From positions 33,271 through 97,270 of the forward strand of contig DAOSOK010000004.1 of assembly GCA_035373905.1 (NCBI GenBank): a DNA stretch of 64,000 bases. Direction: 5' to 3'. Each line of letters starts with the position of its first letter. Position 1 is the stretch's first letter. The DNA is from Candidatus Ozemobacteraceae bacterium. Lineage in GTDB: Bacteria > Muiribacteriota > Ozemobacteria > Ozemobacterales > Ozemobacteraceae. The notes under the pieces were generated by a model, which was given only the letters and a program-made list of their open reading frames with translations, was not told the origin of the DNA and ran no database searches. Positions 15,156-62,980 of this stretch are shown here, piece after piece. A program made the position numbers and the translations under genes.

Positions 15156-15304
15156 TATTGAGTCCTGCGTATCAAAAACCAGCTTCGTGTCCCCGTTCGT
15201 GCTGAGCTTGTCGAAACACGAACAACCACTTGCTGATGGTTCCTCATTTTGCCCTACGACAGGCTCAGGGCGAACGGTTGGTTTTCATTCTGCAGGACTC
15301 AATA
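15156..15304. repeat. MITE-like repeat element (~150 bp) with 13-bp terminal inverted repeats, containing a copy of the palindromic repeat family
   Basis: TIRs TTATTGAGTCCTGC at 15156-15169 and GCAGGACTCAATA at 15292-15304. The interior is about 85% identical to the reverse complement of 44034-44183. Confidence 0.6.
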
Positions 15305-15389
15305 GTCCCATAGGGATTTTGAGGCTATCGGACCCGCGGTTGCGATCGTTCGGGCACCCCCCCGGATTTGCCCTGAGAAGGGGGGGTAT

Positions 15390-15398
15390 GGTATAAAC
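15390..15398 (+). promoter_or_regulatory. candidate extended -10 element (TGgTATAAA) for the V-ATPase operon
   Basis: TGnTATAAA-like motif about 65 nt upstream of atpE; no clear -35. Confidence 0.3.
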
Positions 15399-15463
15399 CC
15401 CGAACCCGGTCATGATGTTCGCCCGGATTTCAAAGGCCGCAGGTCACCGAAGGAGTTTCCGCC

Positions 15464-16075
15464 ATGGGTATCGATGTCGCAACCTTCACCAAGCAGCTTC
15501 GCGAAGACGGAATCGAAGCCGCCCGCCGCGAGGCCGAAAAGATCCTGGCCGATGCGAGGGCGAAAGCCGACCACGAAAAAGAGCAGGCCAGGGCCGCGGC
15601 CCGTCGTATGGTCCAGAAAGGGGAGGCCGAGATCGCCCGGCACCGGCAGAAGGTCGAGGCCGAGCTCAGGCTTGCCGCCCGTGACCTGGTTCTCGACGTC
15701 AAAAAGCGCCTGGAAAACCTGACGCGTGGCCTTCTCCAGCCGGTCGTCGCCGAAAAACTGTCGGCGGCGGACGTCGTCGAGTCCTCCCTCCGGGAACTCC
15801 TGAAAACCCAGAAGACCGGCCGCGAATGGGAGGCGGCGCTCGGCCCCGTCGTCGGTGCGAAACTGACCCAAGCCGCGCTGAGCGACCTGTTCAAAACCGC
15901 GGACGGCCGAGTGAAACTTGGCGAGACGCTCAAGTCGGCCGGATTCACCCTGCGCGACACCGCTTCCGGCGAAGTCATCGAACTGACCGAAACTTCGGTC
16001 GCCGACGCCTTCGGCCGTCTGATCGCGCCCCAGCTCCGCGCTCTGCTGGACAAGTCCGAAAACGCCGGAGCCTGA
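15464..16075 (+). CDS. atpE: V/A-type ATP synthase subunit E
   Basis: About 200-aa Ala/Glu/Arg-rich coiled-coil protein typical of V-type subunit E; AAGGAG RBS; first gene of the operon. Confidence 0.7.
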   Translation: MGIDVATFTKQLREDGIEAARREAEKILADARAKADHEKEQARAAARRMVQKGEAEIARHRQKVEAELRLAARDLVLDVKKRLENLTRGLLQPVVAEKLSAADVVESSLRELLKTQKTGREWEAALGPVVGAKLTQAALSDLFKTADGRVKLGETLKSAGFTLRDTASGEVIELTETSVADAFGRLIAPQLRALLDKSENAGA

Positions 16076-16084
16076 GTCGCAACC

Positions 16085-16789
16085 GTGAGCGCGCGACTCT
16101 ACTACCTCCTTTCCGCCCTGCCGCCCCTGCCGGGGTTCGGCGAGCCGCCCCCGTGCAGCCTCGATGAGGTGCTTGCGGCCATGCGCGCCGAGGAAAACCC
16201 GGCGCTCGACATTCTCGCGGATTGCTTTTCCGTCGAACCGGCCCTGCGCGCAATGCAGAAAAGCCGCCTGGTGGGGCATCTGTCCGAGCCGCCGGCCGAT
16301 CTGATGGAGCTTCTCCCCGACTGCATCCGGGAACGGGTCGCCGTCTGGCCGTCTCGGGAGGAGGAAGTCGCCTGGCACGAAAGCGTCTGCTTCGCCTGGT
16401 TCGAGTTCATGCGCCGGACGGGCCTCGTCATCGGATCCAGGCTGCTTCAGCGCTGGAGCGCGTGGGAAATGACCCTCGCCGTGTATCTGGCGAACGCCCG
16501 TGATACTGCGGAATCCGCCCCGGCAAAGGAACGCCCGGTTCCGCCCGAGGCCCCGGCCTTCGATTACGACGGGCTCGTGGCCGAATGGCACAACGCCGCC
16601 GACCCGATGACCGGCGAGCACAAGCTCGACGAGGCCCGGTGCGCCTTTCTCGCCTCGGAATCGACCCGCTACTCGTTCGAGATCGACGAACTCGTCTTCT
16701 ACCTGTTGAAACTCAGGCTGTTGTCCCGGTATGCGGCTCTCGACCGGGCCACGGCGCTCAAGACACTCGAGGAGGTCACCGTCCTGTGA
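16085..16789 (+). CDS. DUF2764-like protein (conserved gene found between the E and A subunits of bacterial V-type ATPase operons)
   Basis: GTG start; positional equivalence with the hypothetical gene between atpE and atpA in Chlamydia/Treponema-type V-ATPase operons. Sequence-level assignment is weak. Confidence 0.45.
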   Translation: MSARLYYLLSALPPLPGFGEPPPCSLDEVLAAMRAEENPALDILADCFSVEPALRAMQKSRLVGHLSEPPADLMELLPDCIRERVAVWPSREEEVAWHESVCFAWFEFMRRTGLVIGSRLLQRWSAWEMTLAVYLANARDTAESAPAKERPVPPEAPAFDYDGLVAEWHNAADPMTGEHKLDEARCAFLASESTRYSFEIDELVFYLLKLRLLSRYAALDRATALKTLEEVTVL

Positions 16790-19852: not shown

Positions 19853-19870
19853 CGCCGGAGACCGTCGCAG

Positions 19871-22236: not shown

Positions 22237-22248
22237 GGAGCTGAAACC

Positions 22249-22746: not shown

Positions 22747-22787
22747 ACTCCTTCCGGCGCAGCCGTTCCGGCTTCGCTCGATCAGAT

Positions 22788-40571: not shown

Positions 40572-41180
40572 ATGTCTGCAGAGGTTGAACGGATCATCCT
40601 GGCCGGGTTTGGCGGCCAGGGCATTCTGTTTCTGGGGAAAGTTCTCGCCGAGGTCGGCATGCGCAACGGCAAACACGTTTCCTGGCTGCCCTCGTACGGC
40701 CCCGAAATGCGCGGCGGCACCGCGAACTGCACGGTGATCCTCTCGGAGCACGCGATCGCTTCCCCGCTCGTCACGGTGCCCGACACGGTCATCGCGATGA
40801 ACCGCCCGTCGGTGTCGAAGTTCAACCTTCGCATCAAGGCCGGCGGCATGCTGATGTACAACTCGTCGCTGATTGAGCGGCAGGAGTTCCGCGACGACAT
40901 TCGCCTGGTCGAAGTGCCGGCCAGCGAGATCGCCGAAGAGTTGGGCAACCCGCGCGTCGCCAACCTCGTGATGGCGGGCGCCTACGCGAAGTTCAGCAAG
41001 CTCATCTCCTACGAGACGATGGCCGAGAACCTCCCCAAGATCACGCCGAAGGCCAAGAAAGAGCTGATCGACACGAACCTCAAGGCCCTCGAACGCGGCT
41101 ACCAGTTCGTGACCGAGAAGAAATACATGTTCGGCCGGTACGTCTACTCGGTCTTCAGGGGAATCGGCAGCAACGCTTGA
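40572..41180 (+). CDS. second, stand-alone copy of a 2-oxoacid:ferredoxin oxidoreductase gamma subunit
   Basis: About 55% identical over 180 aa to the gamma subunit at 38103-38657 (GFGGQGILFLGKVLAEVGM...[13 protein letters not shown]). No alpha/beta/delta partners are adjacent. Confidence 0.8.
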   Translation: MSAEVERIILAGFGGQGILFLGKVLAEVGMRNGKHVSWLPSYGPEMRGGTANCTVILSEHAIASPLVTVPDTVIAMNRPSVSKFNLRIKAGGMLMYNSSLIERQEFRDDIRLVEVPASEIAEELGNPRVANLVMAGAYAKFSKLISYETMAENLPKITPKAKKELIDTNLKALERGYQFVTEKKYMFGRYVYSVFRGIGSNA

Positions 41181-43984: not shown

Positions 43985-43993
43985 AGAAGACGA

Positions 43994-44218
43994 TCCGCAG
44001 ATGACGCAGATGGCGCGGATTGGCAGGGAAATCTATTGATTTCTGCAGAATGAAAGCCACCCGTTTGCCTTGAGTCTGTCGAAGGGCAAAATGAGGAATC
44101 ATCGGCAAGTGGCTGTCCGTGCTTCGGCAAGCTCAGCACGAACGGAGACACGAAGCTGGTTTTTGATATGCAGGACTCAATAACCAAAAAATCTGCGTCA
44201 TCTGCGAAATTTGCGGAT
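43994..44218. repeat. composite MITE-like element: outer inverted repeats (ATCCGCAGATGACGCAGAT) flanking an inner ~150-bp element homologous, in inverted orientation, to 15156-15304
   Basis: Outer arms at 43994-44012 and 44191-44218 (reverse complement, with a 9-nt insertion). The inner element at 44034-44183 has degenerate TIRs CTATTGATTTCTGCAG / GCAGGACTCAATAA and an internal copy of the palindromic repeat. Confidence 0.55.
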
Positions 44219-50044: not shown

Positions 50045-50139
50045 CGTTTGATCCCTTTTTCACTATTATACTCGGTGTACCTGAGGAGTGGGCAGATTCA
50101 GATTTCAAGCCGGTTGCGCCGATAGAGAAGAGAAGACAT

Positions 50140-51321
50140 GTGAAGTCGCATCGGAGAGTAAACGGAACACCCCACGCCCGGTGGGCGGCAATCGCGCTGC
50201 TCATCGGTATTTTGGCATGCGGTACATCCCTCTTCGGGCTTCCTGTGCCGATGCAACTGGCGCCCCCCTGCTCGCTCGAACGAACCGAGCGGAACGTCAC
50301 CACCCCGTTCGGACCCTGGCGCGAACGGTCGGAACAACGAATTACCTACGGCCATTTCACGCCGTATCTCTCGAGCGAATTCCAGTTCCGGCACGCGATC
50401 TTCAAGCATGAGTGGGGCACCAGGACAGGCCGCGACTTCCTCACGCAGGCGTCGTTTTCCGGCAGAAACATGAACTCCCCCATGAGCTTCAAGGTGGGGC
50501 GCATCTGGAGCGGTAACGCCCTGTTCCGGCCGGTCGACGGCGGCTCCTGGACGTATCCGTGGGGCAGGCGGCTGAGTACGACCCTCGAAGCCGGCCGGCT
50601 CGCGACGCACGATCTCAAGGACGACACGAACAAGCCGGGATATTTCGAAGGCCGCCTCAACTACCGGTTCAACGAGCAGACGACGTTCGCGATCCTCTCG
50701 GAACAGGAATGGCACGACCGGTATAGCGCCGCGCAGCTGGGATACGTGATCGACGCGCTCCGGCTGATCGGGGAATACCGCTCGAGCGGAGCGACCGACA
50801 CGTGGCGCATGGGCATGCAGTATTACGACGGGAAGTGCGTCGATCTGACCGCCGATTACCGGCTCAACTACAACGATGCCACCAACTCGGGGGTCGGCCG
50901 TGCGACCGCCGGGTTCGAATCGGGCCAGATGTATTTCGAAAGCTCGGTTGGAGGTCGATTCTTCTTCGAGAAGGAGAAAATTCCGGACAGCACGTTTTAC
51001 GAGGGGAACGTCACCTGGGGAAACACGCGACTCGGCGAAAGCACCGCGGGGCTTGGTTACACGGTCGAGTCGGGGGTGGCTTCGGTGAGCCGCACGATTT
51101 CCGGCACGGTCGAGCGCGTCGTCACGAAACGCACCCGGATCGGCCTGACGCTCGCCGAAACCCGTTTCGATCAGGGCAAAACGAACGTGCAGAACATGGA
51201 AAGCCGGCTCCATCGGCGCGTCGACTGGGGATTTTACGAACTCAGGTTCGCGCTGATTTCCGGCGGCGCTGACTCGGATCTCGAAAAGGACATCGCTCTC
51301 AGAGCCGGCTACGAATTCTGA
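50140..51321 (+). CDS. putative outer-membrane beta-barrel protein
   Basis: GTG start and signal peptide; alternating Tyr/Gly-rich amphipathic strands; C-terminus ...LRAGYEF ends in aromatic-x-Phe, as is typical for OMP targeting. Confidence 0.5.
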   Translation: MKSHRRVNGTPHARWAAIALLIGILACGTSLFGLPVPMQLAPPCSLERTERNVTTPFGPWRERSEQRITYGHFTPYLSSEFQFRHAIFKHEWGTRTGRDFLTQASFSGRNMNSPMSFKVGRIWSGNALFRPVDGGSWTYPWGRRLSTTLEAGRLATHDLKDDTNKPGYFEGRLNYRFNEQTTFAILSEQEWHDRYSAAQLGYVIDALRLIGEYRSSGATDTWRMGMQYYDGKCVDLTADYRLNYNDATNSGVGRATAGFESGQMYFESSVGGRFFFEKEKIPDSTFYEGNVTWGNTRLGESTAGLGYTVESGVASVSRTISGTVERVVTKRTRIGLTLAETRFDQGKTNVQNMESRLHRRVDWGFYELRFALISGGADSDLEKDIALRAGYEF

Positions 51322-51411
51322 TTCGCACGATGTGCCCTGATCTGACAAGTTCCTGTGCGCATTTCCAGCTTCCCGTCCCTGACGTATCTGCATCCTGACA
51401 CGATGAAAGGT

Positions 51412-51465
51412 ACCCGTTCGCCCTGAGATTGGCGAGAGGCAAGTGTTTCGACAGACTCCGAACGG
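51412..51465. repeat. degenerate copy of the hairpin-forming palindromic repeat family
   Basis: cccgttcgccctgagattggcgagaggcaagtgtttcgacagactccgaacggg; the arms are related to CCGTTCGCCCTGAGCCTGTCGAAG / CTTCGACAGGCTCAGCACGAACGG. Confidence 0.5.
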
Positions 51466-51635
51466 GCGGCAACGCGGAGCTGGCTTTTGCAATGCAGAAA
51501 TCAAATGAATATCGAACCTCCGCAGTTTCGTTCTGGCCTCGGAATGCTCGTTGATTCCTGTTGCCGGGGCATCTTCGTTCGCGTAGACTTGGATGCATAC
51601 CGTTTTGACCAGCGATTCCCGCCAGGAGGTCCCCC

Positions 51636-54600
51636 TTGCTTTTCGAGAAGATCCTGAGGATTGAACAACTGCCGTTCGATGCCGGCCGCATTGCCGTTTC
51701 CTGCGATGTCGGCGAGGGCCGTTGGGTCGACATGACCTACGGGGAGCTCGTCGAGATCGTGGGCGAGGTGGGCCGCATTCTCGGCGAGAGCGGCGTCAGA
51801 AAGGGCGAGCGCATTCTCCTCGTCGGCGAGAATCACTACAAGTGGCTGCCGGTGTTCCTCGGCATCACGGGATACGGCGCCGTCGCCGTGCCGGTCGACG
51901 GGATGCTCGCGGACAAGCGCCTGCTCGGCATCATCGAGAACTGCAACCCCCGGGTCATCATCACGTCGAAAAAGTTCCAGGACAAGACGGCCGCCCTGGT
52001 CGATCAGCTCGGTGCAACATGTGGTGTCGTCAATTTCCACTTCGACCTGGTGCGGGTTCATGGCGAAAAGGAAACGGCACGCCTCGCTCCGGCGACGATC
52101 GAGCCTGAAGACACCGCCGCGATCATCTACACGTCGGGAACAACCGGCCGTCCGAAGGGAACGATCCTGAGCCATCGTGCTCTCGTCGCGGCCGCAGCGA
52201 TGGGTCTGTCTCTCGGAAATTATCGGCAGACCGACGTGATGCTGGCTCTTCTTCCGTTCACGCACGTGTACGGCCTCGTGAACACCGGCCTCTGCCCGCT
52301 GATGGTCGGGTCGAAGATCGTCATGACGGCTTCCTACAATCCGATCGAGATCCTGCAGGCGATCGTGCGGTTCCGCGTCAGTTTCCTGCTCGTCGTTCCG
52401 CGTCTCGCTGAAATCTTCGTGATGGCGCTCCGGCAGATGGCCCAGCCCATGCCGATCCCGAGCATGACGATGATCATCGGCGGCGCCTCGGTCGCGCCGA
52501 AGGTCATCGAAGCGCTCCGGGCGTGCGGCGTCAGGGCGTTCCAGGGCTACGGCATGACCGAGACGTCGGGCGGCATCGTCGCGTCGATGGATGGTCCGGT
52601 CAGTTCCGTCGGAAGGGCGCCCGAGGGCGTCGAGTTCAAGCTCGAGAATGCGAAGAACGGCGTCGGCGAGCTGCTGGTTTCCTCGCCGACCCTGTGCAGC
52701 GGCATCTTCGGCAGCGCCGAGGACACGAACGCGCTGTTTTCGGGAGCGTTTCTGCGGACCGGCGACCTGTGTGAGATAGATAGCGATGGCTATATATACG
52801 TGCGCGGCAGGGAAAAGGACGTCATCATCCCGCCCGGCGGCGTGAACGTCTACCCCGACGAACTCGAAATGCGGCTCGGGGCGCTGCCCTTCGCCGAGGA
52901 ATACGCCGCGCTGGGCTTTTCCGAAAACGGAAGCGAGTATCCGGCGCTGGTCGTCAAGCCGTCGAAGGCGATCCTGCAGACGAAACCGCCGGCTGAAGCC
53001 GCCGCCTTCATCGAAGAGGAGATCCGACGCATCACCGCCGACTGGCCGGAATGGGAGCGGTTCCGCAGGATTCACGTCGTTTCCGCGCCGCTGCCCCGCT
53101 CCGCGAGCCAGAAGGTGCAGCGGAACCGGCTTCTCGAAACCCTGGGGGGCGGCGCGGCTCCTGCCGCAGCGGAGCAGCCTCGGAAGAAGGCGCCCGTTTC
53201 GTGCGGCGTCGAAGCTGACCGGCAGTTCGAGATTTTCCGGAAAATCACGGGTCGGTTTCTCAACGTCGCACCCGAGGCCATCACACGCGGGAAGCGGTTT
53301 GCGGAGTTCCTGCAGCTCGATTCGCTCGGCATGGTGGCGCTCGTTTCGCAACTCTGCGAAGAGTTCCGGATCCCGATGCGCGAGCTCCAGATCGAGACGG
53401 TGCAGGATTTCGGCGGACTGTTCGACCTGCTGATCGCCGGCGGCGGCGTCGCGGCCGGAGAAGCGGTGTTCGACGAGGCCGAGCTCGAAGGACGTCTGCC
53501 GCCGCTTCTCGATTACAGCCCCGACGCCGTGAAGGCGCGCCAGCGGTTCCTGCAGAAGCGCACGGGGGCGAACGTGAAGTGCATTCCGCGCCCCGAGGAC
53601 GCGCGCTTCCTGAGCGGTAACGTCGAGGGCTTCATCGGCTTCGGCGAGATTCCGCTGGGGCTGATCGGCCCCCTCAAAGTGGCGGGCGATCACGCCCGCG
53701 GCGATTTCTACATCCCGCTGGCGACGACCGAGGGCGCGCTCGTCTCGTCCGTCGCGCGCGGGGCGCAGGTCATCACCCTCTCGGGCGGCGCGCGCGTCAA
53801 GGTCATCGCCGACAGCCTCGTCCGGGCGCCGATCTTCGTCTTCGAGACGCTGTTCGACATGATGTCCTTCAACCAGTGGATCGAGAACCATTACGACGAT
53901 CTGAAGGCCGCGGCCGAGTCGACCACGCGGCACGGCCGGCTGGAAGCGATCGAGCCGTTCCCGATGGGGTCGACCCTCTGCCTTCGGTTCGTGTATTCGA
54001 CGGGCGACGCGTCGGGCCAGAACATGACCACGATCGCGACCCACGCGGCCATCAAATGGATCGCCGCCCATTACCGGGGGCCGATGACCGACTGGTTCCT
54101 CGAGTCGAATCTGTCGGGCGACAAGAAGATCAACGGCGTCAACTTCACGCGCAATCGCGGGAAGCGCGTGATCGCCGAGGCCGAGATTCCCCTGGCGATC
54201 GTCGAGAAGCATCTCCATACCTCGGCCGATCGCATGGTGCGGCTGGGCCAGCTCTCGATGATGACCTCGCTGCACGCCCACGCGTTCGGCTCCCAGGCGC
54301 ACTACGCGAACATCCTGGCCGCTATGTTCATCGCGGCCGGCCAGGACCCCGCCTGCGTGGCCGAGTCGGCGACAGGCGTCACGAGCCTCGAACTGCGCCG
54401 CGACCGGCTTGCCGTCTCGGTCACGCTGCCGGGCCTGATGGTCGGCACCGTCGGCGGCGGCACGCGGCTTCCGACCCAGCAGGCCTGCCTGCAGATCCTC
54501 GAATGCGACGGCCCGCGCCGCGCGCGCAAGCTCGCCGAGATCGTGGCGGCCGCGGTGCTGGCCGGCGAGATCTCGCTGATCGCGGCGATGGCCGCCGACG

Positions 54601-54650
54601 AGTTCGCCGGCGCCCATGCCCGGTACGGGCGGAGCGGCGGCCATGGCTGA
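51636..54650 (+). CDS. tri-domain fusion protein: acyl-AMP ligase (adenylation) domain + phosphopantetheine carrier (ACP/PCP) domain + class-I HMG-CoA-reductase-like reductase domain
   Basis: TTG start with an AGGAGG RBS. A domain: IIYTSGTTGRPKG, GYGMTETSG, TGDL..D.DGY..RGR.KD. Carrier domain: FLQLDSLGMVAL (Ser attachment motif). C-terminal 370 aa align motif-by-motif with the HMGR catalytic domain: EGFIGFGEIPLGLIGPL~ENVIGYMPIPVGVAGPL, LATTEGALVSS~MATTEGCLVAS, TGDASGQNM~SGDAMGMNM, GDKKING~TDKKPAA, AGQDPA~CGQDAA, GTVGGGTRLPTQQACLQIL~GTVGGGTNLLPQQACLQML. Catalytic Glu/Lys/Asp and the C-terminal His are present. Confidence 0.8.
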   Translation: MLFEKILRIEQLPFDAGRIAVSCDVGEGRWVDMTYGELVEIVGEVGRILGESGVRKGERILLVGENHYKWLPVFLGITGYGAVAVPVDGMLADKRLLGIIENCNPRVIITSKKFQDKTAALVDQLGATCGVVNFHFDLVRVHGEKETARLAPATIEPEDTAAIIYTSGTTGRPKGTILSHRALVAAAAMGLSLGNYRQTDVMLALLPFTHVYGLVNTGLCPLMVGSKIVMTASYNPIEILQAIVRFRVSFLLVVPRLAEIFVMALRQMAQPMPIPSMTMIIGGASVAPKVIEALRACGVRAFQGYGMTETSGGIVASMDGPVSSVGRAPEGVEFKLENAKNGVGELLVSSPTLCSGIFGSAEDTNALFSGAFLRTGDLCEIDSDGYIYVRGREKDVIIPPGGVNVYPDELEMRLGALPFAEEYAALGFSENGSEYPALVVKPSKAILQTKPPAEAAAFIEEEIRRITADWPEWERFRRIHVVSAPLPRSASQKVQRNRLLETLGGGAAPAAAEQPRKKAPVSCGVEADRQFEIFRKITGRFLNVAPEAITRGKRFAEFLQLDSLGMVALVSQLCEEFRIPMRELQIETVQDFGGLFDLLIAGGGVAAGEAVFDEAELEGRLPPLLDYSPDAVKARQRFLQKRTGANVKCIPRPEDARFLSGNVEGFIGFGEIPLGLIGPLKVAGDHARGDFYIPLATTEGALVSSVARGAQVITLSGGARVKVIADSLVRAPIFVFETLFDMMSFNQWIENHYDDLKAAAESTTRHGRLEAIEPFPMGSTLCLRFVYSTGDASGQNMTTIATHAAIKWIAAHYRGPMTDWFLESNLSGDKKINGVNFTRNRGKRVIAEAEIPLAIVEKHLHTSADRMVRLGQLSMMTSLHAHAFGSQAHYANILAAMFIAAGQDPACVAESATGVTSLELRRDRLAVSVTLPGLMVGTVGGGTRLPTQQACLQILECDGPRRARKLAEIVAAAVLAGEISLIAAMAADEFAGAHARYGRSGGHG

Positions 54651-55413
54651 GCCCATGCGGGTGGTGTTCGTCACCTCGGATGTCACCTACGTCCGGGACA
54701 ACTACCATTCCCTCGTCCGGCGCGTCTGCGACAGGAACGCTCTGCCCGAAGGCGTCGAGCCGGTCGGCCTGGTGCTGCTGCACGTCAGCAGGGCCGTGCT
54801 CCTGAAGAACATCCTCGGGCTGCCGCTCGTCGGGGCGCCGCAGTTCGCCTTCACGCTCGCCCGCAACCTGATGCGGGCCTCCCTGCGGGACCCCCGCCCC
54901 GAGGCCGCCGAACGGGCGGGCGTTCCCGTTTTCCGGTGCGACAGCGTGAACCGGCCCGAAGCGGTGGAGTGGCTTCGCGGTCGCCGGCCAGACCTGATCG
55001 TGAACATGCGTACTAGAAATATATATAAAGATATCGTTCTTGGCCTGCCGACGATCGGGTGCATAAATATACATCACGGTATACTTCCCGAAAACCGCGG
55101 GACGATGTGCGATCTGTGGGCCTGGGCCGAGGGACGCCCCGTCGGCTTCACCATCCACTGGATGAACGCGAAAATCGACGACGGCGACATCCTCGTCCGG
55201 CGCGAGGTCGATGTGAAGGGGTTGCGCTGCTACCTCGACATTCCCCAGGCCTCGAGCCGGGTCGAGGCGCAGGCGCTGCTCGACGTGCTCGGCAGGATCC
55301 GGCGCGAAGGACGGTGGGTCGGCATACCCAACCGCACCGACGCCGTCGATTACAGGCGGAATCCAACGCCGGCGCAGATCGGCATGCTTCGACGGAAGGG
55401 ATTGAGCCTCTGA
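54643..55413 (+). CDS. stand-alone formyltransferase-fold protein (Fmt/PurN N-domain-like), without a tRNA-binding C-terminal domain
   Basis: Catalytic-loop motif GCINIHHGILPENRG (~INxHxSLLPxxRG) and downstream DDGDI (~DTGDI); the ATG overlaps the upstream gene end. Confidence 0.65.
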   Translation: MAEPMRVVFVTSDVTYVRDNYHSLVRRVCDRNALPEGVEPVGLVLLHVSRAVLLKNILGLPLVGAPQFAFTLARNLMRASLRDPRPEAAERAGVPVFRCDSVNRPEAVEWLRGRRPDLIVNMRTRNIYKDIVLGLPTIGCINIHHGILPENRGTMCDLWAWAEGRPVGFTIHWMNAKIDDGDILVRREVDVKGLRCYLDIPQASSRVEAQALLDVLGRIRREGRWVGIPNRTDAVDYRRNPTPAQIGMLRRKGLSL

Positions 55414-55430
55414 CGGAAGGGGAGGGCAAC

Positions 55431-56261
55431 ATGGGTGTTTTCAGCGAGGGAAGCATCAGGCTTCCGGGGCGGGAGGTTCTCGCGTTCGGCGAATGCGGAA
55501 AAGGCACGCCGGTACTGATGCTTCACGGGAATCCCGGCGACCGGGACGACTGGGCCGGGCCGGCGAAACTTCTCGCCGAGCGCGGGTTCCGGTGCCTGGC
55601 CGTCGACCGGCCGGGGCACGGCCTGAGCAGCCCCCTGCCCGCCGAGCCTGGCCAGGCAGCCGACGCCTGTGCGGCGCTTCTCCGTTCGAACGCGGGCGGC
55701 AAGGCGATCGTCGCGGGGTACTCGATGGGGGCGCACGTTGCACTCGATCTCGCGCAGCGGCATCGGGACCTCGTTTCCGGGGTTTGTCTTGTCGCACCCT
55801 ATCTGATGCCGCGCGACGAGAACGAGCAGCCGTCCGGCCTCCCGGGACTGCTTGACATCCCTCTGCTGAGAGCGGTCCTCGGGTTGCTCCTTCCCATGCT
55901 TGGCGGAGGGAAAATCCGCCGGCACCTCGAAACGACGTTCAAACCGGCTGCCGCCGATCCGGCTCTCGTGGACGAGCTTGCCGGCAGATTCTCCACGTTC
56001 GCTTCGCTCGAGGCGACGCTCAGGGATAAAAATCTGTTTCTCGATACATACAAAAAGGTTCTGGAAGGCACGGCGACGCTCACCTGCCCCGTGCTGATGA
56101 TCACCGGCGCGGAAGATGCCGTTTCGGGAACCGCCAGCGCCGAAGCGATCAGAAAGGCGATTCCGGGCGTTCTTTCCACGGTCGTCGACGGCGGTGGCCA
56201 CGCCCTCCCCTGGACCCACGCGTCGCTCGTCGCCGACCGCATCTCCGGACGATCGGCGTGA
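55431..56261 (+). CDS. alpha/beta-hydrolase-fold protein
   Basis: Nucleophile elbow GYSMGAH, HGNPGD oxyanion region, and a C-terminal ...DGGGHALPW with His. RBS GGAAGGGGAGGG. Confidence 0.75.
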   Translation: MGVFSEGSIRLPGREVLAFGECGKGTPVLMLHGNPGDRDDWAGPAKLLAERGFRCLAVDRPGHGLSSPLPAEPGQAADACAALLRSNAGGKAIVAGYSMGAHVALDLAQRHRDLVSGVCLVAPYLMPRDENEQPSGLPGLLDIPLLRAVLGLLLPMLGGGKIRRHLETTFKPAAADPALVDELAGRFSTFASLEATLRDKNLFLDTYKKVLEGTATLTCPVLMITGAEDAVSGTASAEAIRKAIPGVLSTVVDGGGHALPWTHASLVADRISGRSA

Positions 56262-56374
56262 TGGCTGGCGCTCAACGATTCGTGCGATTGTGAAAACTTT
56301 ATGAAACTCTCGAGGTAATATCTGGGAAGATCGCCAGAAGCAGGTCTTTGTGAATCCCGCAAAGGGGAAACCCT

Positions 56375-56439
56375 CCGTTCGCCCTGAGCCTGTCGAAGGG
56401 CGAGAGCCTCTCGTGCTTCGACAGGCTCGGCACGAACGG
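56375..56439. repeat. hairpin-forming palindromic repeat (near-perfect copy)
   Basis: ccgttcgccctgagcctgtcgaagggcgagagcctctcgtgcttcgacaggctcggcacgaacgg; a 25-bp inverted arm on each side. Confidence 0.6.
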
Positions 56440-56538
56440 GAACGACACATTGGCTATTGTACTGGTATGCAGGAACCAATACCGGGCAGCGTCTGGAAAT
56501 TCATGGGCCTTGAAAACGATGAAAGGATGGATGAAAAC

Positions 56539-57417
56539 ATGATCGAATTGAGAGGGATGTCGGGAATACGGTCGTGGCGGAAGTTTCAACTCTCGACTGC
56601 GATCGTTTGTCTTGCGTTGACCCTGTCCGTGGTATTCATGCCGGGATGTGGCAAGGAGGCTCCGCCGGCTTCAACCCCGCAGGCGGGCGTCGCCGCCCCT
56701 GCCGCGTCGCAGGCTCTCGCTTCCGCGCCCGTGCCGGCTCCGGTCGCCGTGGCTTGGGCAGCCGTTTCCGGCCAGGGCGGGGCGATCGGTCTGCCCGACG
56801 GTTCGAAACGGCAGATCACCGCCGAGGCGACGATCGTTCCCTCCGGCGGCATCGTCGAACTCACCGACGCTTCGTCCGCCGTTCGGCTTGCCTACGACGG
56901 CGGCGGCACGATCGACGTGACGGGCAAAGGCGTCATCCAGAGCCGTTCCGACGGGTTCGAGACGAAGAATGCCGCGTTCACCGCCGCTTTCAAACGCGGC
57001 AGGAAAGGCTTCTCGGTGCGCGTTCCGGGCGCGGTGCTCGGCGTCCGGGGAACGACGATCGGTTTCAACCTGAATGACGGCATCGGCTCCGTCACCCTGG
57101 TCGAAGGCCAGGTCGCCGTCCAGCCCGAGCAGCAGGGCATGGCCGAGTTCGAGTGGCGGGTGGGCCAGACGCTCGCCCTGGCCGCCGGAAAGATCGACAA
57201 GGTCATTCCCGCGAAGGAAGAAGCAACGCCTGTCGTCGAACCCGACACACAGCCTCAGCCTGACAAGCCTGCCGATAAGCCTGCCGACAAGCCGAAGCCC
57301 GAAACCGGCAAGCAGACGACGGAGCCGAAGAGCCCCTTCGAAAACAAGCCCGAATCCGTCTTCCAGCAGCCCGACACGATGACCGGCGACGGCGGCGACG
57401 GCTTCGGCGGCAACTGA
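56539..57417 (+). CDS. FecR-domain protein with a C-terminal Pro/Lys/Asp-rich tail, likely periplasmic
   Basis: Start chosen at the ATG at 56539 (MIELRGMSG...) after AAAGGATGG; the track ORF begins inside the palindromic repeat. FecR-like block VRVPGAVLGVRGTTIGFNLNDGIGSVTLVEGQVAV. Tail PDKPADKPADKPKPE. Confidence 0.5.
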   Translation: MIELRGMSGIRSWRKFQLSTAIVCLALTLSVVFMPGCGKEAPPASTPQAGVAAPAASQALASAPVPAPVAVAWAAVSGQGGAIGLPDGSKRQITAEATIVPSGGIVELTDASSAVRLAYDGGGTIDVTGKGVIQSRSDGFETKNAAFTAAFKRGRKGFSVRVPGAVLGVRGTTIGFNLNDGIGSVTLVEGQVAVQPEQQGMAEFEWRVGQTLALAAGKIDKVIPAKEEATPVVEPDTQPQPDKPADKPADKPKPETGKQTTEPKSPFENKPESVFQQPDTMTGDGGDGFGGN

Positions 57418-57615
57418 CAAAAGAAGACTTCGTCGCGGGAACGCCGAGATATCTTTTCTTGATTCTGTCTCGTCTTTGGGTTGTCTCTGCGTTTCTGCGC
57501 CTCCGCGGATGAATCACTGCGGCGCAGGCGTGATACATTCCCGGTATCGCCGTGGTATCATGAGGGGGGACCGGCTCTTCTTCTGCCGGTCCCTCGCAAA
57601 TTTGACGGAGATTCG

Positions 57616-59724
57616 ATGCCAGAACCGATGACCGGCCCCACGTGGAATACGCAGCGACCGGCGGCCCTCGCCGCGCGTCGCGGCTTTCTCCTGCCGGCCA
57701 TCGTTCTCATCGCGCTCGTACTAGCCCTGATGTTCGGCGCCCTCAGCTACATGACGAGAGGCCAGGTGCATAGTGCCGCATATTTTATCGACGCCAGTCG
57801 GGCGCTCGGGCTTGCCGAAGCGGGGGCGGGGTGGGCGATCGCCGCCCTTGCCAGCGGATCGTACACCGAGTCGCCGCCGTTCGTCCGTCGCGCTTTCTAC
57901 GACGCCATGTTCAGCGATGGCGGAACCGACTACGAGGGCGACGTCGAGCCGTGCGACGAGTTGAAGCAGTATATCAACAAACTGGGCGGCGATCTGTCGC
58001 TTCGGGTGCGGCTTTCCCGGTGGCAGCCGCTCGTCGCGGGAGCGCCGGGCTTCAAGAACGATCCGGTCGAGAAGATGGGCCGCATCGACGTGGAGGCCGT
58101 CGCCGAGGTGGGAAACGCCCGCCGGAAGGTCCGCATGAGCCGCGGGGTCAAGGTGTATCTCGCGGTGCATCCGGTGATCGGGAAGTTCACCTGCTTCATC
58201 CGGAAGAAGCCCGCTTCCGACGATCTGGTGAACGCCCTCGAACGCACGACGAACGGCGCCGGCTTCACGAACGGCACCCCGCTGGTGCTGAACAATCGCG
58301 GCGCCGGCAACGGATTCAACGTGGTGACTCCGGCTCTCGACCTTGGTGCTCTTCCGGACCTCAACGAACTGTCCAAATCATCCGGGTGGGTGTTCCTCAA
58401 TTCCGACACCGCTCCTTGGACGCTGAACCTCGCAGGTTCCGCCAATGACACCGATTACGACGACCGGTCGATGCTCCGGTTCGGGGCCTACAGCAACGAT
58501 GCTCTGCTGACGGCGGTCAACACCCCCCCGCAGGCCGGCGGGACGACGGTGACGCAGGTCAACGAGAAGTTCCAGGGCCTGAAACGCGATTACACGATCA
58601 GCAAGGGCGGCTCCGTCGTCGTCGCATCCGACTTCCTGAGCGTTCGGCATCTGTTCCCGTCCCTGCCCAAGGCCAGCATCATCCGGCCGTTCGGTACGAA
58701 CGGCGACCTGTCGCCGACCCTGCTGTTCGGGCCCGTTCTCAGGCGGTATCTTCGGGTGCGGTCGGTGGATTGCAAGATCAACATTTCCGGAGTGGACAAG
58801 ACGTTCAAGGAAGTCGGCGTTCCCGGTTTCCCCGACGAGTCGAGCTTCAAGCAGGCCTTCCTTCACCCCCCGACCTCGCCGCGGGACTACGCCGACGATT
58901 TTGTTCTATACGCACAATTATGGAACATGATCGCCGACGCGCCGGGTCTCGCCGCCGGCTGGAACAAGTGGCGGAGTTCCCAGACGACGCTGGTGTCGGA
59001 GCCGTTCATCGAGGGGCTGAACTATCTGGCTGTCGCCGAACGGGAAACCGGGACGGTGCAAAACCCCGTGTCGAAGGCATACACCGACCCGCCACCCGAC
59101 GTCGTCACCGGCCTCGACCTCTGGGCGGGAGGGTCGGAAGGGCTTCGAAAGGCGGAAGGCATCTTCGGCGCTTCCGGAAAACCCCTGTTCGAAGGGGGGC
59201 TGGGCGAGATCGAGGGGATACGGGAATTCGGACCGAAGATCACCGCCATGTATGCCGCGCCGAAGGCGTATCTCGACAGGCATCTCGACCAGTCCGGCAA
59301 CATTGCGGTGGCCGGGGTCGTGTATCTCGGGCCTGAAGACCTGCTCATCGACAGGAAGTGGAACGTGACGGCAGGCGGCGTGCTCGTCGTCGGCGGAAAC
59401 ATCGACATTCGGGCCGGCATCCGGTCCGCAGAGCCCCTGACGCTGGTCAGCACTGAAAATATAACGATAGATACATCCGAGCCGGTCGAAGCGCAGTTGA
59501 TCTGCCTGCGCGGAAAATTCACGCCCCGTAACGCCTTCACGATCAGAGGCGGCGTCGCGGCGGGAGAGATCGATCTGACCAATATGGTCAACTCTCAGAA
59601 GAAGCAGATCAACTGGGACTCCAGGTTCGATCCGTACGCCGTTTCCTCGGCCATGTCGGTCGGCTCCCCCTATCGGTACAGGGTGTCCGAAGAGGAGGAA
59701 TATGTCGTCGAACCCGGCAAGTAA
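57616..59724 (+). CDS. large (~700 aa) N-terminally membrane-anchored hypothetical protein opening the third pseudopilin cluster
   Basis: ATG at 57616 (MPEPMTG...RRGFLLPAIVLIALVLALMFGALSYM). No catalytic motifs. The C-terminal part is Gly/Val-rich and beta-helix-like (VAGVVYLGPEDLLIDRKWNVTAGGVLVVGGNIDIRAGIRS). Confidence 0.45.
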   Translation: MPEPMTGPTWNTQRPAALAARRGFLLPAIVLIALVLALMFGALSYMTRGQVHSAAYFIDASRALGLAEAGAGWAIAALASGSYTESPPFVRRAFYDAMFSDGGTDYEGDVEPCDELKQYINKLGGDLSLRVRLSRWQPLVAGAPGFKNDPVEKMGRIDVEAVAEVGNARRKVRMSRGVKVYLAVHPVIGKFTCFIRKKPASDDLVNALERTTNGAGFTNGTPLVLNNRGAGNGFNVVTPALDLGALPDLNELSKSSGWVFLNSDTAPWTLNLAGSANDTDYDDRSMLRFGAYSNDALLTAVNTPPQAGGTTVTQVNEKFQGLKRDYTISKGGSVVVASDFLSVRHLFPSLPKASIIRPFGTNGDLSPTLLFGPVLRRYLRVRSVDCKINISGVDKTFKEVGVPGFPDESSFKQAFLHPPTSPRDYADDFVLYAQLWNMIADAPGLAAGWNKWRSSQTTLVSEPFIEGLNYLAVAERETGTVQNPVSKAYTDPPPDVVTGLDLWAGGSEGLRKAEGIFGASGKPLFEGGLGEIEGIREFGPKITAMYAAPKAYLDRHLDQSGNIAVAGVVYLGPEDLLIDRKWNVTAGGVLVVGGNIDIRAGIRSAEPLTLVSTENITIDTSEPVEAQLICLRGKFTPRNAFTIRGGVAAGEIDLTNMVNSQKKQINWDSRFDPYAVSSAMSVGSPYRYRVSEEEEYVVEPGK

Positions 59725-60139
59725 CCGCATTCCAGACATCCGCACGCCGATCCCGAAGGGGGGGCGTGGTTTCACGATGATCGAACTCGTGGTCGTGGTG
59801 CTGGTTCTGACGTTGGTCGCCGGGGCGTATTTCTACGTCTGGCGCCAGCAGGGGCGTCTCTCGGCGAGCGACCAGGATGTCGCCGCGTATTACATGGCGG
59901 CGGCATCGTTCATGGACGTGTTCTACAGCGACACCAGAATGGCCCGCAGGATCGAGCCGACAACGGACGGCTGCATCATGGAAGTCATGACGTCCGGCGG
60001 CCTCCAGCAGGTGACGTACACCCTGCGAGACAACGGCATCGAGCGACTCATGAGCGGCAAGACGAAAGTGTACACGTTCGGGAAGCCGTTGCGCGAAAAT
60101 GCGAAGGTGCTCTTCCGTGTCCGGGAATTGGCTCCCTGA
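59702..60139 (+). CDS. prepilin-type N-terminal cleavage/methylation domain protein (pseudopilin-like)
   Basis: ...KGGRG|FTMIELVVVVLVLTLVAG; overlaps the upstream gene end. Confidence 0.65.
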   Translation: MSSNPASNRIPDIRTPIPKGGRGFTMIELVVVVLVLTLVAGAYFYVWRQQGRLSASDQDVAAYYMAAASFMDVFYSDTRMARRIEPTTDGCIMEVMTSGGLQQVTYTLRDNGIERLMSGKTKVYTFGKPLRENAKVLFRVRELAP

Positions 60140-60193
60140 CCGTGCGTGAAAGCGAGATTGGCCCGTGAACCATCCAACAAGGAGGTCGTTGCC

Positions 60194-60952
60194 GTGAATC
60201 GGTCTTTCGACAATGTCGTGTTCCGAGGCGCGTGTGCCCTTGCCCTGGCGTTCTGGCTGGCTGGCGCCGCGCTGGCGGTCGCCGCAGAGCCGAAGCCGCG
60301 GTATGGCGTCACCTTCGGACAGGAAGGGAACGAAGTCGAGATGCAGGTCGTTCCCGCCCGCCTGGGGGTCGCCTCGAACGCGATGCCGGCCCCGGCCGAC
60401 CCGTCGGTGCAGGGCATCGTCGCTGCCCCTTCGAAACGGCCGACGGCGCCCCTTTCCACGAGCGCTCCGGCAACTCCCGTCGAATTGAAATCCGAGTCGG
60501 TTGCGGACTACAAGGAGGACGGATTCGACGTCAGCGTCGATGATGTGGCGGGCGAGGCCGTCGCGAATGACCTGGACGCCTCCGGCAAACTTTCACTCGC
60601 GATCCTGTTCAACAACGATTCCCATGAGGTCGACCTGTCGGATGCGAAGACGATGAAAACCCTCAACAGCATCCTGAAGATGATGAAATGCCGGGCGACC
60701 CTCAAGATTCTCATCGAGGGATATGTCGATTATACGGGCACCATGGAATGGCATGCGCTGGGCAAGGCGCCCGACTTTGGCCAGGCCACATCGGAAGCCC
60801 GTGCCTATGCCGTGAAAAAATGGCTTGTCGACAACGGAATCTCCTCGCTCAGAATATCCTGCGTCGGAAAAGGGATGCGAGGCGCAGAGGGCGATTCCGA
60901 GGCGCAGCAGAAGCTGAACCGGCGCGTCGATATCGTGAAACTGTCCGAATGA
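60194..60952 (+). CDS. OmpA-family peptidoglycan-binding-domain protein (copy 1 of a tandem pair)
   Basis: GTG at 60194 with a perfect AAGGAGG RBS and signal peptide. C-terminal OmpA-like domain (IEGYVDYTG...ARAYAVKKWLVDNGIS...NRRVDIVKL). Confidence 0.7.
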   Translation: MNRSFDNVVFRGACALALAFWLAGAALAVAAEPKPRYGVTFGQEGNEVEMQVVPARLGVASNAMPAPADPSVQGIVAAPSKRPTAPLSTSAPATPVELKSESVADYKEDGFDVSVDDVAGEAVANDLDASGKLSLAILFNNDSHEVDLSDAKTMKTLNSILKMMKCRATLKILIEGYVDYTGTMEWHALGKAPDFGQATSEARAYAVKKWLVDNGISSLRISCVGKGMRGAEGDSEAQQKLNRRVDIVKLSE

Positions 60953-61007
60953 GTCCTCAGGCGCGGAACGGCGGATCCGTCGCCGGGTGGCATACGGGAG
61001 GGAAAGG

Positions 61008-61721
61008 ATGCGGAAGATGGCTGATGACGTGTGGTGCCGGACGGCGTTCGTCTCGCTCGGCACGGCCGTGTTCATGATCGTTGCCGCCTCTGCCGGCGCC
61101 CAGCCCCACCGATATGGGGTTGTGTTCGGCCAGCAGGGAAACGAGGTCGAGATGCAGGTGGTGCCGGCCCGCTCCGGGATCGCCACGAGCCCCATGCCGT
61201 ATCCGGGGGACACTGCCGTGACGGCGATCGTCGGCGCCCCCGTGAAACGACCGACCGGCGCCCTCCCTCCGAAACCCGCTGAAATGCCGGTTCCCCTCAA
61301 ATCCCAGTCGGTGTCGGAATACAAGGAGGACGGGTTCGACGTCAGCATCGACGGGGTCTCCGGAGAAGCGTTCGCGCAGAAGCTCGACGCGGCGGGAAAG
61401 GTGTCCGTCGACATCCTGTTCGATTTCGATCAGGCGACGATCAAGGCCGAATCCGTTCCGGCGCTCAACGCGATTCGCTGCATGCTGAAAAACAACCCGG
61501 AGCAGAGAATCCGGGTTGAAGGGTATACGGACTACCGGGGTCCGGTCGATTACAATTTCGAACTGTCCGTGCAGCGGGCGTATGCCGTCAAGCGGTGGCT
61601 CGTCGAGCGAGGCATCGAATCGACCCGGATCGATTACGTGGGAAAGGGACAGCGCGGCGAGGCCGGCGACTCCGAGGCCCAGCAGGCCCTGAACAGACGC
61701 GTCGACATCGTTAAACTGTAG
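61008..61721 (+). CDS. OmpA-family peptidoglycan-binding-domain protein (copy 2, paralog of 60194-60952)
   Basis: RBS GGGAGGGAAAGG. The N-terminal mature region is about 55-60% identical to copy 1 (RYGV.FGQ.GNEVEMQVVPAR.G.A...P.P.D). OmpA-like C-terminus (VEGYTDYRGPVDYNFELSVQRAYAVKRWLVERGIES...NRRVDIVKL). Confidence 0.7.
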   Translation: MRKMADDVWCRTAFVSLGTAVFMIVAASAGAQPHRYGVVFGQQGNEVEMQVVPARSGIATSPMPYPGDTAVTAIVGAPVKRPTGALPPKPAEMPVPLKSQSVSEYKEDGFDVSIDGVSGEAFAQKLDAAGKVSVDILFDFDQATIKAESVPALNAIRCMLKNNPEQRIRVEGYTDYRGPVDYNFELSVQRAYAVKRWLVERGIESTRIDYVGKGQRGEAGDSEAQQALNRRVDIVKL

Positions 61722-61722
61722 T

Positions 61723-62205
61723 GTGTATAACGTGAAATATATAATATTCGAAGACAGCTATTGCCGAAGGGGACGAAACGGCCGGGGCATCCGCGGCCGC
61801 GGCTTCACGCTCGTGGAGCTCGTCGTCGCGATGATCGTGCTGGCGGTGCTGCTGCTGCCCCTCGTCAGGCACTTCGTCAGCACGCGACGCGTCTCGATCG
61901 CGGCGCGCGACGCCGTCGTGGCGAACTCGCAGCTCCTCTCCTGCCTCGCCGACTTCCAGGCGATGAGGTTCGATGAGATTGCGAACGCCACGAACGCGAC
62001 GTTCACGAGGGTGTTCCAGCGCTGGGACGGCGACCGGACGGTCGGCAGCGTGACGTATCACATGTCGGTCAACGTGAGCGCCGGGGCCGACCCGCGTTAC
62101 AGGCTCATCGACGTCGAGACGCAGTTTCGCATGCCCGGGGCTCCCGCCAATGCGCCGAAACGCAAGATGAGCATCAAGGGGTTCGCCTATGCGCCGCCGA
62201 ACTGA
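61723..62205 (+). CDS. prepilin-type N-terminal cleavage/methylation domain protein (pseudopilin-like)
   Basis: ...RGRG|FTLVELVVAMIVLAVLLLPL; GTG start, exact start uncertain. Confidence 0.6.
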   Translation: MYNVKYIIFEDSYCRRGRNGRGIRGRGFTLVELVVAMIVLAVLLLPLVRHFVSTRRVSIAARDAVVANSQLLSCLADFQAMRFDEIANATNATFTRVFQRWDGDRTVGSVTYHMSVNVSAGADPRYRLIDVETQFRMPGAPANAPKRKMSIKGFAYAPPN

Positions 62206-62743
62206 ACCCCGTTCCAGGGGCGGCTTCACCATGACCGAACTCCTGGCCTACATCTTCGGAGCGGCGATCCTGCTGACCCTCGTCATGGGAATCTTCTCGA
62301 AACTCGGCCGCCAGAGCCATACGGGATCGCAGCAAGCGCACGTCCAGACCGTCTTCCTGGCGCTCGGAAACCGGCTCGAGAAAGACCTCGCCGGTTGTCT
62401 CGACTGGCGCACAGACTTTCACCTCGGCGGCGAAATGTCGCTGATCGTCGTCCGGCCCGAGGGAACGATAACGTATGATACATATCCGTCCCGAAGCGAG
62501 GTCGAGCGCGGGTCGAAAGCCGGGACCGAGGTATTCCGGTTCTGGACCGGCGCGCCGATGAAATGCGAGACGCTCGAACTGAACAGCGGCGCGAAGAAGA
62601 ACAAGTCCGTCAAAATGGGCATCAGCATGCCGGGGTCGCCTCCCATCGTGATCGAACGGTCCCTGCCCATCCATCCTTCGACGACGAAGACGGGAAACGC
62701 CGAGACCGCCGAAGGCTTTTTCCCCGTCGCCAGCATGCCGTAA
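62189..62743 (+). CDS. prepilin-type N-terminal cleavage/methylation domain protein (pseudopilin-like)
   Basis: MRRRTEPRSRGG|FTMTELLAYIFGAAILLTLVMG; overlaps the upstream gene end. Confidence 0.65.
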   Translation: MRRRTEPRSRGGFTMTELLAYIFGAAILLTLVMGIFSKLGRQSHTGSQQAHVQTVFLALGNRLEKDLAGCLDWRTDFHLGGEMSLIVVRPEGTITYDTYPSRSEVERGSKAGTEVFRFWTGAPMKCETLELNSGAKKNKSVKMGISMPGSPPIVIERSLPIHPSTTKTGNAETAEGFFPVASMP

Positions 62744-62757
62744 CGGGCCGGGCACTT

Positions 62758-62825
62758 CCGTTCGCCCTGAGCCTGCCGAAGGGGGCGAGATTCCGTTCGT
62801 GGTTCGACGGGCTCACCACGAACGG
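62758..62825. repeat. palindromic repeat copy (diverged)
   Basis: ccgttcgccctgagcctgccgaagggggcgagattccgttcgtggttcgacgggctcaccacgaacgg. Confidence 0.55.
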
Positions 62826-62916
62826 GATCGGGGACTGAACGCCCAGAACGTATTACTGCTCGTCTCATATGTTAGACGACGGGTATCATGAGTGAAATGA
62901 GTGCGTCCGGACCGAC

Positions 62917-62980
62917 ATGATACATCCGTTCGCCCTGAGCTTGTCGAAGGGCGAGAGCATTCGTGCTTCGACAGGCTCAG
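62917..62980. repeat. palindromic repeat copy (near-perfect)
   Basis: ccgttcgccctgagcttgtcgaagggcgagagcattcgtgcttcgacaggctcagcgcgaacgg; two copies lie within 230 bp here. Confidence 0.6.

Follow-up and report, generated by a model that had tools for sequence, protein, structure and literature searches.

We analysed a 64,000-nt stretch of a Candidatus Ozemobacteraceae genome (contig DAOSOK010000004.1; the whole stretch is called the window here), in which a family of short palindromic repeats lies between the genes. A first-pass annotation of the window had described near-identical hairpin-forming repeats, at least six copies in all, and both a core scan and a covariance model bore this out. 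With up to 3 mismatches allowed, the 27-mer core CCGTTCGCCCTGAGCCTGTCGAAGGGC had 6 matches in the window, where 0.00 were expected (none in 100 shuffles). The covariance model (R1, from alignment A3) was built solely from copies of unrelated genomes and was then run on the window. It returned 10 units at E < 3e-4, which make up five head-to-head doublets, and it also picked a degenerate pair at 51410-51469, with no further match anywhere in the 64 kb. The window total is six elements with 12 hairpin units, every one of them intergenic (Table 1). The coordinates given by the annotation were right except at one site, where 62917-62980 had been set from the start of a spurious open reading frame (ORF) and the repeat proper is 62926-62989.

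Table 1. Repeat units, doublets and carrier elements in the window. MITE, miniature inverted-repeat transposable element.
Feature	Position	Strand	Details
MITE copy, 149 nt	15156..15304	-	Subfamily 'GAGTCC...AAAACCAA'; between divergent genes
27-nt unit	15193..15219	+	Stem type GTGC/(A)CAC; 42.1 bits, E 4e-7
27-nt unit	15251..15277	-	Stem type GCCC/GGGC; 36 bits
Arms of a second repeat family, ATCCGCAGATGACGCAGAT	43993-44011 (+), 44191-44218 (-)		Palindromic pair around the 44034 MITE
MITE copy, 149 nt	44034..44182	+	Subfamily 'GATTCC...AAAGCCAC'
Insert of the 44034 MITE	44036-44180	+	Between duplicated TA, 44034-44035 and 44181-44182
27-nt unit	44061..44087	+	GCCT/GGGC; core with 3 mismatches
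27-nt unit	44119..44145	-	GTGC/GCAC
Decaying old MITE copy	51385..51506	+	Units ~51414-51440 (+) and ~51443-51469 (-); 15 and 14.6 bits
Short-spacer MITE copy, 132 nt, ends mutated	56350..56481	+	Carries the 56375 doublet
Core doublet	56375..56439	+	Units 56375-56401 (+, GCCC/GGGC) and 56413-56439 (-, GTGC/GCAC); 11-nt spacer; 47.1 and 41.2 bits
Doublet	62758..62825	+	Units 62758-62784 (+) and 62799-62825 (-, GTGG/CCAC)
Doublet	62926..62989	+	Units 62926-62952 (+) and 62963-62989 (-); 10-nt spacer

Predicted RNA folds were compared with those of shuffled sequences. Among the five intact elements, four are much more stable than the shuffles: the 149-nt elements at 15156 (-67.2 kcal/mol, z = -8.6) and 44034 (-55.5 kcal/mol, z = -4.1), and the doublets at 56375 (-59.8 kcal/mol, z = -6.6) and 62926 (-59.5 kcal/mol, z = -7.1). 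The copy at 62758 has a weaker advantage over shuffles (z = -2.5); its right unit is self-closed (CCGTTCGTGG...CCACGAACGG), and its predicted single-strand DNA fold consists of two separate hairpins. For the degenerate copy at 51390, the RNA fold was no better than that of shuffled sequence (z = -0.9). The ORFs that cover the repeats had been judged spurious, and we agree. The ORFs 62917..63117 (MIHPFALSLSKGE...) and 62901..63158 (SVRPELVEG...FDRLSANG) translate the repeats, as does the 5' part of 56350..57417 (SVRPEPVEG...LRQARHER), and no Pfam or NCBIfam model matched peptides of this kind (PFALSLSKGE / VRPELVEG / FDRLSANG / LRQAQGER type).

Four of the six doublets (15156, 44034, 51385 and 56350) lie inside MITEs of about 120-150 nt, which have terminal inverted repeats (TTGAGTCCTGC...) and no ORF. 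In the element at 15156, TA stands at 15156-15157 and again at 15303-15304, the terminal inverted repeats read TTGAGTCCTGC.../...GCAGGACTCAA, and the core doublet has a 31-nt spacer. The two 149-nt elements are in opposite orientation and are 89% identical to each other. Duplication of a TA target site is a hallmark of transposition by insertion sequences (IS) of the IS630/Tc1-mariner kind. The annotation had regarded such larger elements as hosts of repeat copies. The doublets are indeed embedded in them, but the elements themselves are the mobile unit, with MITE structure, TA duplication and an empty site.

We scanned metagenomes for the outer repeat of these MITEs. It matched 31 further stretches, in line with the dispersed family that had been proposed, and these represent 29 distinct elements (the window's two included), 27 of which are exactly 149 nt long. 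The doublet is central in each of them and the flanks are unrelated. The ends read TA-TTGAGTCCTGC...GCAGGACTCAA-TA in the context Y-TA...TA-R; among the 29 elements, TA or a one-base variant is found at the start in all but one, and TA at the end in all but two. The source samples are the same and related anaerobic-digester and activated-sludge metagenomes, and some of the further copies are on other contigs of the metagenome that holds the window. In this genome, the doublet is the core of TA-inserting MITEs. Other copies in the lineage carry differing combinations of left and right wings around the same core, which suggests recombination at the cores, and the flanks of the 62926 doublet are similar to a second set of wings found around such copies.

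Empty and filled sites were compared in related genomes. At the 44034 site, the relative GCA_964389325.1 (locus L310; neighbouring MtaB protein 89% identical) is collinear with the window. Its empty site reads GGGAAATC-TA-ACCAAAAAATCTGCG, whereas the filled site in the window reads GGGAAATC-TA-(147 nt)-TA-ACCAAAAAATCTGCG, and the BLAST segments between the two overlap by precisely one TA. A second, older pair is found at 56350-56481, where the whole 132 nt are absent from another relative (L312; neighbouring protein 86% identical), which has 2 nt instead. The copy at 51385-51506 is common to the window and L312 (neighbouring protein again 86% identical), is better preserved in L312, and is absent from a 77% relative (L313). 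The doublets at 62758 and 62926 are both missing in L312 and L313. In all, four copies are missing from the corresponding site in at least one related genome, and a fifth (51385) is shared with one relative and is decaying. The window copies are probably insertions that differ in age, rather than regulatory sites kept by conservation.

The 44034 MITE was inserted into a palindrome (43993..44218) of a second repeat family, at the TA between the two arms. This second family (ATCCGCAGATGACGCAGAT and variants) is unrelated; it is also found at window 9207-9240 and at the site in L313 that is orthologous to ~51400, and a short-read contig from another run terminates exactly at window 9207. A further short-read contig, likewise from another run, begins inside the hairpin 56375-56439 and ends inside the hairpin 62758-62825. 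Breaks inside the hairpins are the expected assembly effect of a multi-copy repeat.

To describe the repeat beyond this genome, public collections were scanned with a pattern that leaves both variable dinucleotides free. This gave 69 viral-collection loci and at least 120 genome loci, and the unit and doublet counts that follow rest on the matches listed. The unit is 27 nt long, CCGTTCG-NN-CTGAGCYTGTCGAAG-NN-C. In 399 distinct copies, conservation begins exactly at position 1 and ends at position 27, and the information in the flanks is about zero. The loop (TGAGCYTGTCGAA) and the tail (CCGTTCG) are 95-99% conserved across phyla, and the stem is variable.

The predicted single-strand fold of the unit pairs G7-C27, N8-N26, N9-N25, C10-G24 and T11-A23, continues with G.A/A.G and G14-C20, and closes on a CYTGT loop. 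Of the 161 exact units from the genome loci, 152 have Watson-Crick pairing at the first variable pair and 157 at the second, and the complementary dinucleotides are of 10 types (CC/GG, GG/CC, TG/CA, TC/GA, GC/GC, CA/TG, CG/CG, TA/TA, GA/TC and CT/AG). In 393 distinct units, positions 8-26 are complementary in 351 and positions 9-25 in 363, compared with 135 and 183 expected. At 10-24, C-G is replaced by G-C 18 times; G.A at 12.22 and A.G at 13.21 never vary, and the pair at 14-20 is G-C. A formal count of covariation gave 95.1% of cells paired versus 78.1% in shuffles, with covariation at 4-5 stem pairs (score 0.412 versus 0.113; 0 of 500 shuffles as high). Control alignments that were slid by 1-3 columns were only 36-56% paired (maximum 55.7%). 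The covarying stem, together with the conserved loop and 5' tail, indicates that each 27-nt unit is a stem-loop in single-stranded nucleic acid.

The unit is widespread. Exact units were found in Alpha-, Beta- and Gammaproteobacteria, Myxococcota, Chloroflexota, Nitrospirota, Dadabacteria, Cyanobacteria and Candidatus Ozemobacteraceae (Riflebacteria). The record titles name Sphingomonadales, Burkholderiales, Nitrosomonadales, Methylococcales, Anaeromyxobacter, a deltaproteobacterium, Dehalococcoidia, Anaerolineae, Nitrospirota, Dadabacteria and a cyanobacterium, and the records include isolates, complete genomes and long-read chromosomes. The stem types CC/GG and TG/CA are common to Alpha-, Beta- and Gammaproteobacteria, Chloroflexota, Nitrospirota and Anaeromyxobacter. 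The annotation had not seen this near-unchanged sharing of the core across phyla. No match was found in 50,697 isolated-phage records or in 5,426 E. coli genomes.

Plasmid records with the unit come from Moraxella osloensis, Methylobacter, Variovorax and Comamonas. In plasmids of Moraxella osloensis, a human skin bacterium, GC-rich doublets lie in AT-rich intergenic DNA (L228 3001-3061 and L229 3001-3067); no empty site was found there, the copy being present in all 9 (L228) and 7 (L229) related plasmids found. In the gene transfer agent (GTA) clusters of Sphingomonadales (L230-L309), one short gap about 260 nt upstream of the prohead protease gene holds the family in 5 of 78 loci.

The same GTA gap is otherwise empty or holds other hairpin families, including CCCTCCC-GCAAGC-GGGAGGG and GTTCACGCGGAGACGCGGAG, and is a hot spot; in L284, a doublet of the 27-nt unit is nested inside the GTTCACGCGGAGACGCGGAG family. 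In the viral contig IMGVR_UViG_3300027284_000097 (L231/L232), the left unit upstream of the protease gene has its loop split by a small palindrome nested within it (GGTGTCGCTGCGCGACGTCTGCGACTCC), and the right unit is intact. In the low-GC contig IMGVR_UViG_3300035138_000071 (L039 700-758), other wings have captured the core independently: a doublet there forms the centre of a MITE-like element of another type, flanked by inverted repeats of 23 nt (AATAAGTACCTGGACAAAATTA...).

We investigated how the units are arranged. Of the 408 units, 154 are singlets and the other 254 are paired head to head in 127 doublets, whose spacers measure 1-85 nt. In a doublet, the outer CCGTTCG/CGAACGG tails and the two complementary loops come together in one long hairpin. 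Both arms have the identical stem type in only 8 of the 127 doublets, and the long hairpin therefore has mismatch bubbles exactly where each arm is self-complementary. In 14 of the 154 singlets, GAACGG directly follows the unit and pairs with the 5' tail, so that a perfect hairpin of about 33 nt results. Doublet spacers are lineage-specific and recurrent: CCAATT occurs four times in Dehalococcoidia, YGTCCTTCTT...AAGAAGGACR is found in Sphingomonadales, and one betaproteobacterial metagenome-assembled genome (MAG) has three near-identical doublet spacers. Because the spacers recur within lineages, whole doublets replicate as units, like REPINs, the inverted doublets of repetitive extragenic palindromic (REP) sequences.

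A tandem array was seen in a Chloroflexota MAG (CAXXVD010000001.1, L164 668-931), with five same-orientation units 48-70 nt apart. Each unit is followed by GAACGG or a one-base variant, and the array, at one end of a large ORF, resembles a cluster of the bacterial interspersed mosaic element (BIME) kind.

These results are probably best explained by two layers, a REP/REPIN-like core that is shared across phyla and a local MITE carrier that duplicates TA. The core would be non-autonomous mobile DNA of the REP/REPIN/BIME kind that has spread horizontally across phyla. Its movement may depend on an enzyme that acts in trans and recognises the hairpin, with the conserved loop and tail, in single-stranded DNA. 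A nuclease of the HUH/Y1 class, similar to IS200 transposases or to REP-associated tyrosine transposases (RAYTs), would be the most likely candidate, since the ends of bare doublets are sharp, their target is not duplicated and their stems covary. A hairpin with conserved single-stranded bases is the recognition logic of HUH/Y1 enzymes. In the second layer, the MITEs insert at TA and duplicate it, as DDE transposases of the IS630/Tc1-mariner kind do. Given such a carrier, the local copies would multiply mainly as its passengers, with an IS630-type transposase located elsewhere acting in trans.

Several observations weigh against this explanation. About 1.5 Mb of loci was scanned for the HUH...YxxNP motif, with three false matches and no Y1 transposase. 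Transposases were not among the 25 most frequent of the 170 Pfam families in 150 neighbouring ORFs, and no family had more than 3 members. In the 31 metagenome loci, there was no long element between pairs of MITE terminal repeats that could be an autonomous IS, and tblastn with an IS630 transposase against all DNA examined matched the query alone. The unit starts with CCGTTCG and lacks the GTAG or CGTC tag of most catalogued REPs. It is absent from the table of REPs adjoining tnpA-REP genes by Quentin 2018 (PMC6006769), and likewise from the GTAG/CGTC survey (PMC3733652) and from Nunvar 2010. REPIN-RAYT systems have been described as vertically inherited and lineage-specific (PMC5581495), whereas the core described here is cross-phylum. 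Finally, the long hairpin of doublet DNA folds at -28 to -31 kcal/mol versus about -7 kcal/mol for each small hairpin; the long form is thermodynamically favoured, so any role of the small stem is confined to singlets and to transient single strands.

Because no RAYT was seen in the DNA examined, the GTAG/CGTC tag is lacking and the range spans phyla, membership in the RAYT-REP class is not established, although the family is REP/REPIN-like in architecture. The annotation had suggested sites associated with TnpA(REP). Of this suggestion, the dispersed intergenic hairpin family with REP-like architecture holds; the ~1.5 Mb scan gave no support for the link to a RAYT, and the tag is missing. Two other sources of a mobilising enzyme were considered and rejected. 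All-against-all clustering of ORFs near the units gave only GTA and prophage head genes, which reflect the sampling of the viral collection. Pairs of units (+ ... -) 0.2-5 kb apart enclose housekeeping genes such as rlmH, maf and RNase G, not transposases.

Alternatively, all copies, including the bare doublets, might be ordinary MITEs of DDE transposons, in which the unit is an inverted repeat at or near the end of the element and is recognised in double-stranded form, with no reading of a single-strand hairpin. We consider this unlikely. It would agree with the four window copies that lie within TA-duplicating MITEs, with the 11 of 126 doublets elsewhere (about 9%) whose flanking inverted repeats exceed the 99th percentile of controls, and with a bias in the base that adjoins bare doublets (left, T or C; right, A or G). 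However, bare doublets showed no target duplication of any length (n = 2: 8 observed versus 7.5 in controls; n = 3: 2 versus 1.8), and singlets are common. Recognition of a double-stranded inverted repeat does not predict covariation within arms that differ from each other. Moreover, conservation is confined to the inner part, with outer wings that differ from lineage to lineage, and a normal MITE has the reverse arrangement.

The gene context was assessed with gene calls on a public copy of the contig (JAKPPM010000033.1, MAG GCA_029547365.1; also present in JGI metagenome 3300009689). Every copy lies between genes called on it, which agrees with the intergenic placement first reported. The 15156 copy is between divergent genes, the 44034 copy and the 62758/62926 pair are between convergent genes, and the 51385 and 56350 copies are between co-directional genes. 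Elsewhere, with a rough gene caller, the elements fall into co-directional, convergent and divergent gaps at 55%, 30% and 15%, versus a background of 60%, 22% and 18%. The 150 neighbouring ORFs (100-340 aa) are housekeeping genes with unrelated Pfam families.

The annotation had placed the repeats at operon boundaries, possibly as terminators or stabilisers of mRNA. More generally, the hairpins could be RNA elements selected by the host (a terminator, an mRNA 3'-end stabiliser or another cis-regulatory structure). The hairpins are very stable, their stems covary, and they lie between genes, somewhat more often in convergent gaps than the background would give (30% of elements versus 22% of gaps). 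However, other findings contradict this reading. A scan for intrinsic terminators called no copy in 50000-64000, and the tails are not T-rich. The 15156 copy and about 15% of the elements elsewhere lie between divergent genes. The orientation of singlets relative to transcription showed no significant bias (20 versus 11), and the neighbouring genes are spread over many unrelated families. At its gathering score, Rfam (15) gave 0 matches in the whole window; in E-value mode, two copies matched only generic hairpin models (microRNA precursors) at no more than 27 bits, versus 53-100 needed. In addition, a GC-rich hairpin at 63054-63086 (GACCGGCCCCG...CGGGGCCGGTC) adjoins the 3' end of a minus-strand CoA-transferase gene beside the 62758/62926 doublets. 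This native terminator-like hairpin appears to have survived the two insertions, because L312 and L313, which are without both doublets, have a similar short hairpin in that gap. Close relatives without copies at the same sites keep a terminator-like hairpin of their own. A role as host RNA is very unlikely, and the operon-boundary and terminator claim is not supported.

BIMEs bind IHF, gyrase and Pol I, and binding of this sort, in place of a dedicated transposase, could account for a core conserved across phyla. A reading of the loop and tail as the binding site of a conserved host protein, with copies spread by recombination or by other elements, would suit the conservation of loop and tail over a variable stem, the differing arm types, which resemble the Y and Z REPs of BIMEs, and the wing combinations that suggest recombination at the cores, but it is hardly probable, since there is no candidate protein and the patchy distribution (absence from the E. 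coli genomes and isolated phages, variation between close relatives) suits a mobile agent better.

Two other observations concern the window itself. The genes for two paralogous gamma subunits of 2-oxoacid:ferredoxin oxidoreductase (PF01558) are about 80% identical across 237 nt (38124-38360 and 40587-40823; also 38451-38520 and 40914-40983) and lie 2463 nt apart. No tRNA or tmRNA genes were found in the window.

With the two-layer explanation, a further idea may be put forward tentatively, as one that is possible but on balance doubtful. The unit could be the recognition module of a widespread, horizontally moving nuclease or transposase of single-stranded DNA, which is not the RAYT of classical GTAG-REPs and has not so far been linked to repeats, and the module would have been captured repeatedly at the centre of lineage-specific MITEs and palindromes. 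If this were true, the family would be a pan-bacterial 'hitch-hiker' repeat superfamily that is conserved in its loop rather than in its ends, with captures seen in Riflebacteria, in some Sphingomonadales and at other loci.

We searched the open-access full-text literature for the DNA core, its peptide translations and palindromic repeats of Sphingomonadales, and nothing relevant was returned. We found no description of the sequence of the 27-nt unit in Rfam 15 or in that literature; in kind, it is a REP/REPIN-like repeat, accompanied by an IS630-type MITE that carries one. The occurrence of one 27-mer with the same stem subtypes in distant phyla is a puzzle for the view that REP-like repeats are lineage-specific and vertical. 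Its GC-rich sequence is kept even in the AT-rich Moraxella plasmids. Both facts point to an unrecognised horizontal agent and an enzyme with specificity for loop and tail. In practice, the family breaks short-read assemblies, yields spurious ORFs and offers presence/absence markers among close relatives.

We compared the repeats with known systems. Like the attC sites of integrons, which act as folded single strands, they are imperfect palindromes with variable central spacers. This candidate was rejected because the outer CCGTTCGNNC (GTTCGNN) misfits the R''/R' core GTTRRRY, and the copies are single among housekeeping genes, with no cassette array or integrase context. IS200/IS605 ends, palindrome-associated transposable elements (PATEs) and HUH origins share with the unit a variable covarying stem with conserved single-stranded bases, the absence of target duplication, and no need for terminal inverted repeats. 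However, the hairpins here are inverted rather than direct, and no TnpA or TnpB was found nearby.

The REP/REPIN and RAYT systems and the BIMEs of E. coli resemble the repeats in architecture. Both are short GC-rich imperfect palindromes scattered between genes, as singlets and as inverted doublets that fold as one hairpin. They also share two arm types (compare the Y and Z REPs), no target duplication, doublets that replicate whole, spurious ORFs and assembly breaks. The differences are that the 27-nt unit has no GTAG/CGTC tag and conserves its loop and 5' tail instead of its stem, that no RAYT was found beside any copy examined, and that the same 27-mer is found in at least nine phyla or classes, in contrast to the vertical inheritance of REPIN-RAYT systems (PMC5581495).

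The carrier elements are similar to the MITEs of IS630/Tc1-mariner transposons, being 132-149 nt long and free of ORFs, with inverted repeats at their ends, many copies whose flanks are unrelated, and a Y-TA-R target in which the TA is duplicated, as the empty site shows. Nezha of cyanobacteria is an example of a bacterial MITE derived from this group. Unlike such MITEs, the elements have at their centre a cross-phylum doublet that is wingless in most other lineages, and no autonomous partner of theirs was found in the DNA examined. A universal core within variable wings is the reverse of the usual MITE design.

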